From contig CAWCNJ010000002.1 of the NCBI GenBank assembly GCA_963796955.1, positions 19,610 to 83,609 on the forward strand: a stretch of DNA of 64,000 nucleotides, given 5' to 3'. This DNA is from Endomicrobiales bacterium. GTDB taxonomy: Bacteria; Elusimicrobiota; Endomicrobiia; Endomicrobiales; JALOBY01. Shown here piece after piece: positions 33,001 through 36,000 of this stretch (the first letter of the stretch is position 1; each line of letters begins with the position of its first letter). Made by a program: the position numbers.

Positions 33001-36000
33001 CGAAGAAAGGCACCGACGCTTTCATTCAATTCAGTAGGGAAAGGACCTTCGCCTACGCGGGTAGTGTACGCTTTGACAACCCCGAGGACAGATTGTATTT
33101 TCGTCGGTGCAACGCCGGCCCCGGTGCAACAGCCGCCGGAAATAGGGTTGGAAGATGTTACATAAGGATAGGTGCCAAAATCAAGGTCGAGCAGCGTGCC
33201 CTGTGCGCTTTCAAAAAGAACGTTCTTACCGGCATTGATGGCTTTTTCAAGCATGATGCCGGTATCGGTGACGAACGGCAGCATGAATTTGCGCAGTTTC
33301 TGGTATTCGGCTAGGCATTCGCGGCGCACTTTCGCGACGGGAACGATCTTGCTGAGCAGCGGGCCTTTTTCTTTAAGGTTCTTTTCGAGCAAATCCATGA
33401 AAACATCTTCTTCGACATAATCTATGACACGGATGCCCAGGCGAGTAACCTTATCGGCGTAACAAGGACCTATGCCGCGCCTTGTGGTGCCTATACGGAT
33501 CTTACCGCGCTCGCGCAGTTCGTCAAGATATTTGTGATACGGCAAAATGACGTGCGCCCGGTCGGAAATGAAGAGGCGGCCTTTGACATCCAGGTTTTTG
33601 CTTTTAAGGAGTTGTGCTTCCTGATAGAGGTTCGCGGGATCGATAACGACGCCGTTGGTTATAAGACAAACTTTTTTAGGGAATAGAACGCCAGACGGGA
33701 TAAGGTGCAGAACATACGGCTTGTTTTCGTAAATAATGGTATGGCCGGCGTTGTTGCCGCCCTGGTACCTTACGATCAGATCAGCCTGCTGAGAAAGATA
33801 ATGAACTACTTTGCCTTTACCTTCGTCTCCCCACTGTGTGCCGATGACTACTAATGTTGACATATATAACCTTTTGTTCAGAAATCGCGCCCTCAAACCC
33901 AGGGGAATCCTTCTCACCCGCCCTGCCGGGCTCCTTCGAAGCCGGCCGCCCTCGCTTTATCCGCCTACGCGGCGGCGCTTCGGGTCGGCTTCGATTCCCT
34001 AATATTGGCGCCCTCAAGGGGAATCGAACCCCTGCCGCATCCTTGAAAGGGATGTGTCCTAACCGCTAGACGATGAGGGCAGTTAGTGTTTAATCAAAGT
34101 GCATCTATATCCTGAGCTCTCTTTCAAGTTCTTGAAAGGGATGGTTGCGGCTACGCATCGCAACCCGGGGCATCCTCGCTCTGCTGCGGTGCCCGCGCCT
34201 ACCCATCGCTCCTGTTCGTCGCGATAGTCGCCCTAACCGCTAGACGATGAGGGCAGTTAGTGTTTTAGACGCAAAAGATCTTATGAGCCCGGAGTGGTTC
34301 GAACACTCGACACCCTCCTTAAAAGGGAGGTGCTCTACCAGCTGAGCTACGGGCCCAAGATAACATTGACAGAAAAGAACTCGGCGATTGTTTTACAAAG
34401 ACAACCGGATAACCGGGGGTACTTGCTCCGTAATATCTGGGGTATTCTACCAAAAGGCGGTAATTTTGTCAAATAACCGGATCGTTTTTCTAAATCAATT
34501 GACTTTAAACGATACGGCAGCGGTCCTGCTCTATTTTTCGTCGTTCCGTGATATCGTGAAAAATACCCAGCAAATATTCTTTTTTTCCGAACTGGATCAG
34601 TGCGGCGCTTATATCGACATAAACGATAGCCCCGTCTCGCTTTTTCAGCGGAACATCGGTAACGATCTTTTTTTGTCCCATTACGAGCGAATCGAACTGA
34701 GACTCCTGGATATCATATTCGTTTTCAGGATGCAGATGTCGTATCGCCATGCCGCGAAGCTCATATTGGCTACGTCCTGTCAGATCGCACATAGCCTTGT
34801 TGCACAGATATATTTTACGCGTTTCTGCGTCGGCAAGCGCAATACCGTCTATCGCATGGTTAAAAATAATCTCGAACCGGTCTTTTGAATCTTCCAGCTG
34901 GCCTTGCAGGGCTTTAGCTGAATTGGTAAGGTCTAAAAAAACCATCTCGAACGGCTTCAGCAAACCCACATTGAGAATTGCCCGGTAAAAAAGATAGAAG
35001 GAAAGCAGTTTGATGAAATGGCTCAAGGAATACATGACGCCGAATTCGCGGTCATAATTAAGCAGCGGTATCTCTACACAGATCGCAAGCACCAGTCCGG
35101 CGGTTAATAGACCAAGGGTCTGCGCGGGTAAAAAAGTTTTTTTCTTTCGCACATGGAAAAGAGCGCCTGAAAAAAGCACGATCACAATGAACTCGTTGAT
35201 ATTTTTGAATGCGGTGACACCGGTCCCGGGTACGAACGTTCGCGGCATAAAACCCCAGACATATACCGCCCCATACATAAGGATGGTTACCAGTGCGTAG
35301 ATGCCGGTCACCGTATAGAGATTGATCTTGCGGCGCAAAAACAACGGTGCCAGGAGCAGCGCGGTCGCTTCCAGGTAGCGGGAAAGCAGCCCGGACTGGG
35401 TATACAGATCACTACCGGCCGAGGAGAATATACCAATACCGGTAAAAGAGAACAAATGCAGCACATTCATTATGCCGAAGAACAAAAAGGCGATGCCCAG
35501 GAACTGAAAGAAATCCGTATCCGGGAACTGCCGTGCGTTAAGACCGATCACGTATATCGTCCACGCGATCAGGATACAGCACAGCTCAATAAGAGAGTGG
35601 AACAGCACATAGTTTTCCGTGCTTATCCAGTAGAGAACCGTAAGTGCCGCGGCGACGCACACTATTTCCGCTATAATGCCTTTACGTTCCATGGTAACCG
35701 CTATTTCAACAACTCACTGCCGCATGCGGGACAGTTGTCAAAACCCGGATGATCGTGCTCGAAAACTATTTCCATACCGCAGGAAGAACAAACGCTGTAG
35801 CCGTCTTCCAACGATCTGGAAAAACGTGATGAACGGGTATGCAGTTCAGGGTGAACGGTAATATCTTCCGTGAAAAACTCCAGCATGTTCATAGACGCCA
35901 TCGTGCGGCTCCTTTTTGGGCTGGGCCCTTGTATTTACCGGCAGACCATACATGAATTCAGATACATCATTTCCGCCTTCAGGGCGCGTGAACGACGCAG

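Follow-up and report, generated by a model that had tools for sequence, protein, structure and literature searches.

Hairpin units with an inverted copy of the host T-loop behind tRNA genes of Elusimicrobia

TLRs and other systems at tRNA genes

The TLRs of Escherichia coli (also RtT or rttR) have been known since 1978 (Egan and Landy 1978; Rudd 1999, both via PMC8144298). The text of PMC8144298 reports 22 of them, each ending in 18-19 bp of the upstream gene, with 1-5 per locus and no known function; for those at the rRNA operons (rrA/B/F) it describes transcription, processing and the binding of Hfq and CsrA. Neither 'inverted' nor 'mobile' occurs in its main text. Several other systems share single features with the units described below. 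IS608 has single-strand ends, in which a guide 5' of a hairpin sets the cleavage site by pairing, and according to the same source it makes no target duplication (PMC5934647). Members of the IS91 family (IS801, IS1294) insert next to GTTC via single-strand circles, also without target duplication as described in bioRxiv 2025.01.24.634351. Integrases are known to use the T-loop as a subsite (PMC4383910), the overlaps of phage integrases measure 7 bp (bioRxiv 2023.11.06.565760), and CTXphi undergoes one-strand exchange with partial homology (PMC4246890). Casposons target the T-loop end of tRNA genes and duplicate 15 bp (PMC5137440). Our literature search found no description of the present family, with Rudd 1999, Egan and Landy 1978 and Williams 2002 outside its reach.

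The units described here are gene-less, about 114-264 bp long (76 copies), and consist of a spacer (X), an inverted copy of the host T-loop (a'), a GC-rich core with two domains (P1 and P2) and a displaced direct copy of the tRNA 3' end (a2). Like TLRs, they stand right behind a tRNA gene and end in a copy of the host's 3' end, and TLRs of K-12 likewise contain a spacer, an inverted piece of the T-arm (10 nt at tyrV, 8 at argV, 6 at proK), hairpins with GNA or GNYA loops and trailing partial units. We found a like order of parts in ten units from four K-12 regions, with direct copies from base 58 or 59; K-12 TLRs mostly invert positions 59-63 and fit their own tRNA by at least 6 nt in three of the ten units. 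In the units described here, by contrast, base 57 is the usual start of the direct copy, a' spans the whole loop and the host fit is stronger. TLRs also follow 5S rRNA, whereas none of the units seen here does. A homology search gave no RtT match up to an E-value of 10, and our model R1 scored at best 8.1 bits (E 0.6) against the TLRs. The family has the layout of the TLRs with a different core and register, and is not a member of the RtT family. The class itself is known and unexplained.

The units would resemble IS200/IS605 elements and their non-autonomous derivatives in ending as single strands, with cut sites set by the base pairing of a short guide that lies 5' of each hairpin. The positions of the guides fit this logic, although the pairing geometry differs from that of IS608: the unit pairs by plain antiparallel pairing, shows no transposase gene between its hairpins in any locus and duplicates a target end of 17-20 nt. 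The GTTC of the IS91 family equals the first four letters of the T-loop region, but the terminal tetranucleotide of IS91 resembles its target, whereas here that tetranucleotide is free and the target end is duplicated. The restored gene, the displaced fragment and the subsites in the T-loop or anticodon loop are shared with tRNA islands (Islander) and with CTXphi/attC systems, from which the present units differ in their small size, the lack of an integrase and the inverted copy of the target loop. Casposons are large and carry Cas1, a polymerase and fixed terminal inverted repeats, none of which occurs here; MITEs, too, have fixed terminal inverted repeats common to all copies, whereas here the ends vary with the host.

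Units in the Endomicrobiales genome and their fit to host tRNAs

The window that we analysed is a stretch of 64,000 nucleotides from an Endomicrobiales bacterium. It carries on the reverse strand, like the parts of the units placed below, a gene for tRNA-Glu(UUC) at 34006-34080, whose T-loop (positions 54-60) lies at 34022-34028. Six bases past the gene (spacer X, 34000-34005) stands a' (33990-33999), 10 nt that form the exact reverse complement of tRNA positions 54-63 and that we propose as a guide or splint. The GC-rich core of 80 nt that follows comprises P1 (33945-33989), marked by tandem G.A pairs, a conserved stem from which an A bulges and a distal hairpin that varies, and P2 (33910-33941), in which a 4-bp stem of variable sequence abuts the direct copy and is joined by a purine-rich loop and a distal hairpin. 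The displaced direct copy a2 (33888-33909) repeats tRNA positions 57-73 with a 5-nt insertion past position 65, so that the end at 33903 given in the genome-wide survey's note was too short. The insert presumably entered the gene between bases 56 and 57 (34026/34025). Displaced tRNA ends frequently carry other inserts, or short scars, that interrupt them within positions 63-66 (L040, L046, L117, L322 and window positions 33896-33900). In 76 relatives the spacer measures 10-116 nt and often holds a terminator-like hairpin. Unit lengths show no helical phasing (Rayleigh p 0.2-0.7).

In the 2.1-Mb assembly (81% complete), we searched the 110 nt downstream of each of the 35 tRNA genes found by ARAGORN. 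As the survey had counted, seven of them have the element: an exact inverted 10-mer (54-63) follows these seven, the remaining 28 show 3-5 mismatches, and such a 10-mer occurred in 3 of 20,000 random 120-nt windows. One core is common to six copies, all six behind tRNAs (two of these escaped one script pattern used for locus parsing), and the copy with a different core, also recorded earlier, is a like-built unit at 50503-50628 behind tRNA-Leu(UAG) (50629-50712), with a' at 50613-50624 and the direct copy at 50503-50519. An Rfam search of the window gave tRNA matches and chance-level ones, and no family for the element. Two other features of tRNA surroundings were observed. A third GC-rich repeat family lies at or near tRNA 3' ends, sometimes in tandem (G000 C5:104470, C5:194848, C7:9334, C8:502909 and C4:221573), and a hotspot at tRNA-Ser(UGA) (G000 C5:173600-195100) holds two islands that entered at the anticodon loop, 5'-side repeats, a cluster that looks like type I restriction by its ORFs, an integrase fragment and, enclosed by inverted repeats, a Y1 gene.

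A separate unit lies on the 5' side of the same tRNA-Glu(UUC) gene (34092-34266). It consists of a displaced 5' half (about 34232-34265), a second GC-rich core (about 34144-34231), a displaced anticodon half-arm (34131-34143) and an inverted copy of the anticodon loop (34121-34128). This 5'-side unit is polymorphic: a contig from a related strain (987 nt, 44 differences, about 5% diverged) skips 34092-34266 and spans the 3' element, and the presence of the latter in so diverged a strain indicates that the 3' unit is old rather than recent. Two relatives (L015 and L016) carry fuller mirror units, with the inverted anticodon loop fitted to UUC and CUC; an exact pattern for this class returned nothing from 301 genomes past these two known loci. 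Separately, the stretch at about 3655-3710 of the window, upstream of tRNA-Asp, resembles the end of the 5'-side unit in L461.

Next, we compared a' with the T-loops of its hosts. All seven bases (54-60) are matched in 123 of 135 copies, which cover 33 tRNA or tmRNA types (shuffled mean 26.8, maximum 43), although the copies are related, so that this and the other shuffle tests and counts overstate significance and independence. At the variable host positions 57 and 59, a' matches in 81 of 82 rows each (against 44 and 31), the 82 rows being 95 minus non-nearest tRNAs and gaps above 150 nt; in a second set the figures are 50/53 (against 26.5) and 51/53 (against 27.8). Past position 63 the match exceeds chance modestly (35/82 against 22.5 at position 64). 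Both ends fit each host, as the survey had stated; however, most of a' is invariant T-arm consensus, and the host-specific letters (57, 59, and partly 55, 60 and 63-65) number only two or three. Two hosts with G55 were seen (the tmRNA of L052 and the tRNA-Lys of L272), both with a compensating letter in a'. Since a2 lacks that base, the partner of a' across the junction is the live gene.

Most direct copies begin with base 57, a minority with base 58, and their usual length is 17-20 nt. Counted from base 57, identity reaches at least 17 nt in 61 of 76 copies, comparable to the 3'-end identity of TLRs, with the window copy broken by its 5 nt. The letters preceding the direct copy match TTC in 0, 0 and 1 of 48. 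The four bases before it take 21 forms, and yet all four are paired with the internal P2 partner in 100 of 122 copies (shuffled mean 23). In L156 the acceptor-stem part of the displaced end behind tRNA-Ala(CGC) deviates from that of the live gene, as though it came from another tRNA.

Pairs of cores at least 90% identical that sit at tRNAs of different amino acids share the T-loop class in one of eight cases (background 0.21), a small sample of such pairs. Since near-identical cores sit at different T-loop classes, as random pairs do, either the ends have been refitted or the cores converted. A fixed-guide model, in which an a' inherited with the core picks the target, is unsupported for the same reason. 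The fit of the ends stands, whereas the inverted end need not have been copied from the host at insertion: its few fitted letters could also come from repair afterwards, or from target choice with gene conversion of the core.

These observations bear on an enzyme-free origin, in which template switching at tRNA hairpins would insert and duplicate the units, quasi-palindrome correction would fit a' and gene conversion would keep the cores alike. Only two or three letters would have to be fitted, no enzyme family is required in all carriers, and the a' of L049 fits the displaced copy but not the live tRNA, while that of L125 fits neither; partial trailing units, moreover, end at scattered places. 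However, the fixed register at 57 and a P2 stem that is free in sequence but strict in pairing look like a recognised substrate, and cores of 76-80% identity occur in records of several phyla. We regard such an origin as quite improbable.

Distribution, gain and loss

We also searched for the core in other genomes. BLAST placed it in 30 of 301 genomes of the phylum, one of which (L056) is a chance match, and a covariance model found it in 17 of 61 genomes of the order, 15 of them strong. Scanning species genomes with an exact pattern yielded 83 loci, including two chance matches (L134 and L169); by record title they are mostly Elusimicrobia, and the other titles include Patescibacteria, Saccharibacteria, Gracilibacteria, Aerophobetes, Firestonebacteria, Omnitrophica and a few more. 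Cores from records with non-Elusimicrobia titles are 61-80% identical to the window core, and those at 76-80% are present in records of several phyla. Metagenomes gave at least 106 loci; 27 metagenome matches without a tRNA within 130 nt, three of them chance matches in coding DNA, were set aside before the counts on host fit. The survey had seen the element only in close relatives, but it is not confined to them: the core turns up across the phylum and also under other record titles, Patescibacteria and Aerophobetes among them. A search of viral contigs for the general layout yielded 42 loci, most of which are chance matches or convergent tRNAs and a few of which are units with other cores; a search for the core itself yielded one locus, a partial match at chance level. 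The order a'-core-a with unrelated cores was also observed in L262, L246, L075 and L090, among them one contig of a viral collection with tRNA-Gly and one with a tmRNA-like end. In L131, L152, L420 and L348, element-bearing tRNA genes missed by ARAGORN are apparently split by self-splicing introns, the type being judged by eye.

Orthologous sites are often empty, in agreement with the earlier description of the element as polymorphic: the site between tRNA-Glu and purA is empty in nine of ten relatives, with a 7-nt remnant in L024. Within one genus, G038 has a unit at tRNA-Ser(GCU) whereas the site of G112 is empty, with a trailer similar to the DNA past a2; the unit thus pushed the old gene end downstream. 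In some genomes X is alike between different tRNAs, so that part of it travels with the core. A second unit trails 29 of 118 units (4 full, 25 partial) but 0 of 92 controls, so that tandem units per locus occur here as they do in TLRs. In E. coli, the proK unit is by coverage missing in 14 of 30 evenly spread rows and doubled in one, and in one strain that we fetched the proK site keeps a partial unit only.

One locus (L269, G004:C26:170000-185704) holds three units 4-6 kb apart, each with the tail end of tRNA-His, and between them genes for restriction, a Dam-type methylase, a nuclease, a HigBA toxin-antitoxin, a large repeat protein and others. We considered a cargo-carrying cassette and set it aside, because a shared motif ahead of a' resembles the terminus of a different kind of island; the units have probably been split by other islands.

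Fold, candidate enzymes and modes of movement

The aligned sequences support a three-way junction, in which an outer stem a':a2 would meet the P1 and P2 domains. When 42 copies were aligned, pairing held in 92.8% of cells, compared with 81.8% after shuffling and 36-57% in slid registers; both sides vary in 13 of 24 pairs, and P1 shows its bulge and tandem G.A pairs. The survey had found that folding as DNA is not significant, and this holds for single copies (z -0.93 and -1.24), yet the covariation across copies is strong. Among the loops on the tRNA-sense strand of 76 cores are 36 GNA triloops (4.5 when shuffled), 19 GNYA (0.6), 18 GNRA (3.9) and no UUCG, whereas the opposite strand has five GNA triloops; a GNRA preference is absent. 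Wobble pairs are rare, and the few at constrained positions are G.T on the sense strand. Mini-hairpin loops of the GNA and GNYA type are stable in DNA. Given this behaviour, the loop types and the rarity of wobble favour single-stranded DNA.

As RNA, the antisense strand folds best (z -2.71 against -1.66), and the precursor RNA is predicted to have a tidy alternative fold, with a' base-paired to the T-loop and the acceptor stem made complete by the displaced end. This fold would suit a reading of the unit as a structured RNA that is produced together with the tRNA, either as its trailer or as a small RNA; it would spread rarely, be resized by direct-repeat recombination and be matched to its host by selection on RNA folding or processing. 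The structured strand is the transcribed one, and the transcribed and processed TLRs of the rRNA operons, with their binding of Hfq and CsrA (PMC8144298), offer a parallel. However, the terminator-like hairpin that X often holds ahead of a' would cut the core off the transcript, and the absent GNRA preference, the lack of UUCG loops, the rare wobble pairs and the lack of an Rfam match speak against RNA. The patchy presence at 33 tRNA types also fits mobility better than host function, and we therefore hold the RNA reading to be rather unlikely.

Among flanking proteins, Y1 occurred in 1 of 108 and an integrase fragment in 1 of 72, the latter part of an upstream island; no locus has a transposase gene between the hairpins, and an autonomous version with a gene between P1 and P2 was sought in vain among loci with long or broken cores. 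When 51 Y1 and integrase loci were searched with a profile, the core came up in two, each accounted for by a tRNA site. The 15 strong-carrier genomes have Y1 in 12 (12/46 in the others), IS110 in one and reverse transcriptase in four, and among the matches listed short GIY-YIG genes occur in 14 of 15 carriers and about 20 of 46 others, comparisons that are confounded by lifestyle. We rejected reverse transcriptase and IS110 as partners for their poor co-occurrence. A Y2 gene was found in 0 of 5 genomes, in a search without a working positive control. Neither flanking proteins nor co-occurrence thus gives a linked enzyme, as the survey had also reported.

The best leads are short GIY-YIG (Ssn-like) nucleases and Y1 HUH proteins. 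Ssn GIY-YIG nucleases are known with single-strand DNA hairpin repeats (NTS/SRM; PMC11893778, whose main text lacks the word 'tRNA'), and the combination of such repeats with a small nuclease recalls the relatives studied here, in which GIY-YIG genes lie among broken tRNA copies; the core, however, was absent from the surroundings of all 19 short GIY-YIG genes searched. In L024, L460, L461, L464, L465 and L466, short GIY-YIG genes have incomplete tRNA copies on their flanks, with hairpins interrupting them.

A tyrosine recombinase acting in trans on a folded single-strand att site, by the logic of CTXphi attP(+) and integron attC, would be another way to move the units. An antisense circle would exchange one strand at T-loop 60/61, replication would resolve the product, and a' would be the complement of a 7-bp overlap. 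Within a', strict conservation covers just the 7-nt loop, and integrases are known for a T-loop subsite (PMC4383910) and, in phages, for 7-bp overlaps (bioRxiv 2023.11.06.565760); one-strand exchange with partial homology has its precedent in CTXphi (PMC4246890), and the mirror units of L015 and L016 are fitted to a loop of likewise 7 nt, that of the anticodon. The antisense strand folds well as RNA, and Xer-size recombinases are present in 5 of 5 genomes tested. Such a unit, however, must bring the new host's 17-20 nt end with it, and yet near-identical cores sit at unrelated tRNAs; the GNA/GNNA loops, the tandem G.A and the constrained G.T pairs lie on the sense strand; and G001 (99% complete) has two intact copies, but its Xer-size genes are just two and a fragment. 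We consider this mode unlikely.

Our best explanation, which we give an even chance of being right, is a non-autonomous insert, moving as single-strand DNA, which pairs with the T-loop, enters at 56/57 and is served in trans by an enzyme that the unit does not encode. The insert would pair as a single strand through a' with the host T-loop, and the same pairing would align both junctions, which may lead to excision or to tandem gain. By analogy with the peel-and-paste logic of IS200/IS605, the guide 5' of each hairpin would mark each cut. The duplicated end would be re-synthesised, and two or three letters of a' would be rewritten at the new host; that the substrate is DNA and not RNA, like the cut chemistry, we infer.

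We count in favour of this single-strand insert the T-loop fit of a', the register at 57, the P2 pairing rule, the loop types, the empty sites and the tandem units; apart from the loop types these are established, as are gain and loss and the lack of a linked enzyme. That lack counts against it, as do IS608 and IS91, which make no target duplication, the insignificant z-scores for DNA and the better RNA fold of the antisense strand, together with the carriers without Y1 (3/15), IS110 (14/15) or reverse transcriptase (11/15) and the copy that is not recent; no circle or insertion event was observed. Of the survey's overall picture, a tRNA-targeting, polymorphic, folded element with fitted ends holds, and copying of the inverted end at insertion is one of several possible routes to that fit.

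Tentatively, the family may represent a minimal, DNA-guided class of mobile element that reads 7-nt loops of tRNA genes by pairing, rewrites its guide for each host and moves between phyla as single strands, of which the TLRs of E. coli could be domesticated or slowed members; this would imply a putative nuclease or recombinase with a programmable 7-nt guide and strand joining at a three-way junction. The origin and purpose of TLRs have been an open question since 1978, and this family yields sharp rules: pairing with the whole T-loop, entry at 56/57, a free but paired 4-bp junction stem and DNA-type loops. These rules make the question testable in E. coli K-12, whose repeats vary in number by strain. 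If no enzyme reads them, the units are a neat but harmless repeat family at tRNA genes; if one does, it would amount to a system for programmable insertion of single strands, directed at a safe site that is universal. The pattern suggests how TLR-like repeats may move.
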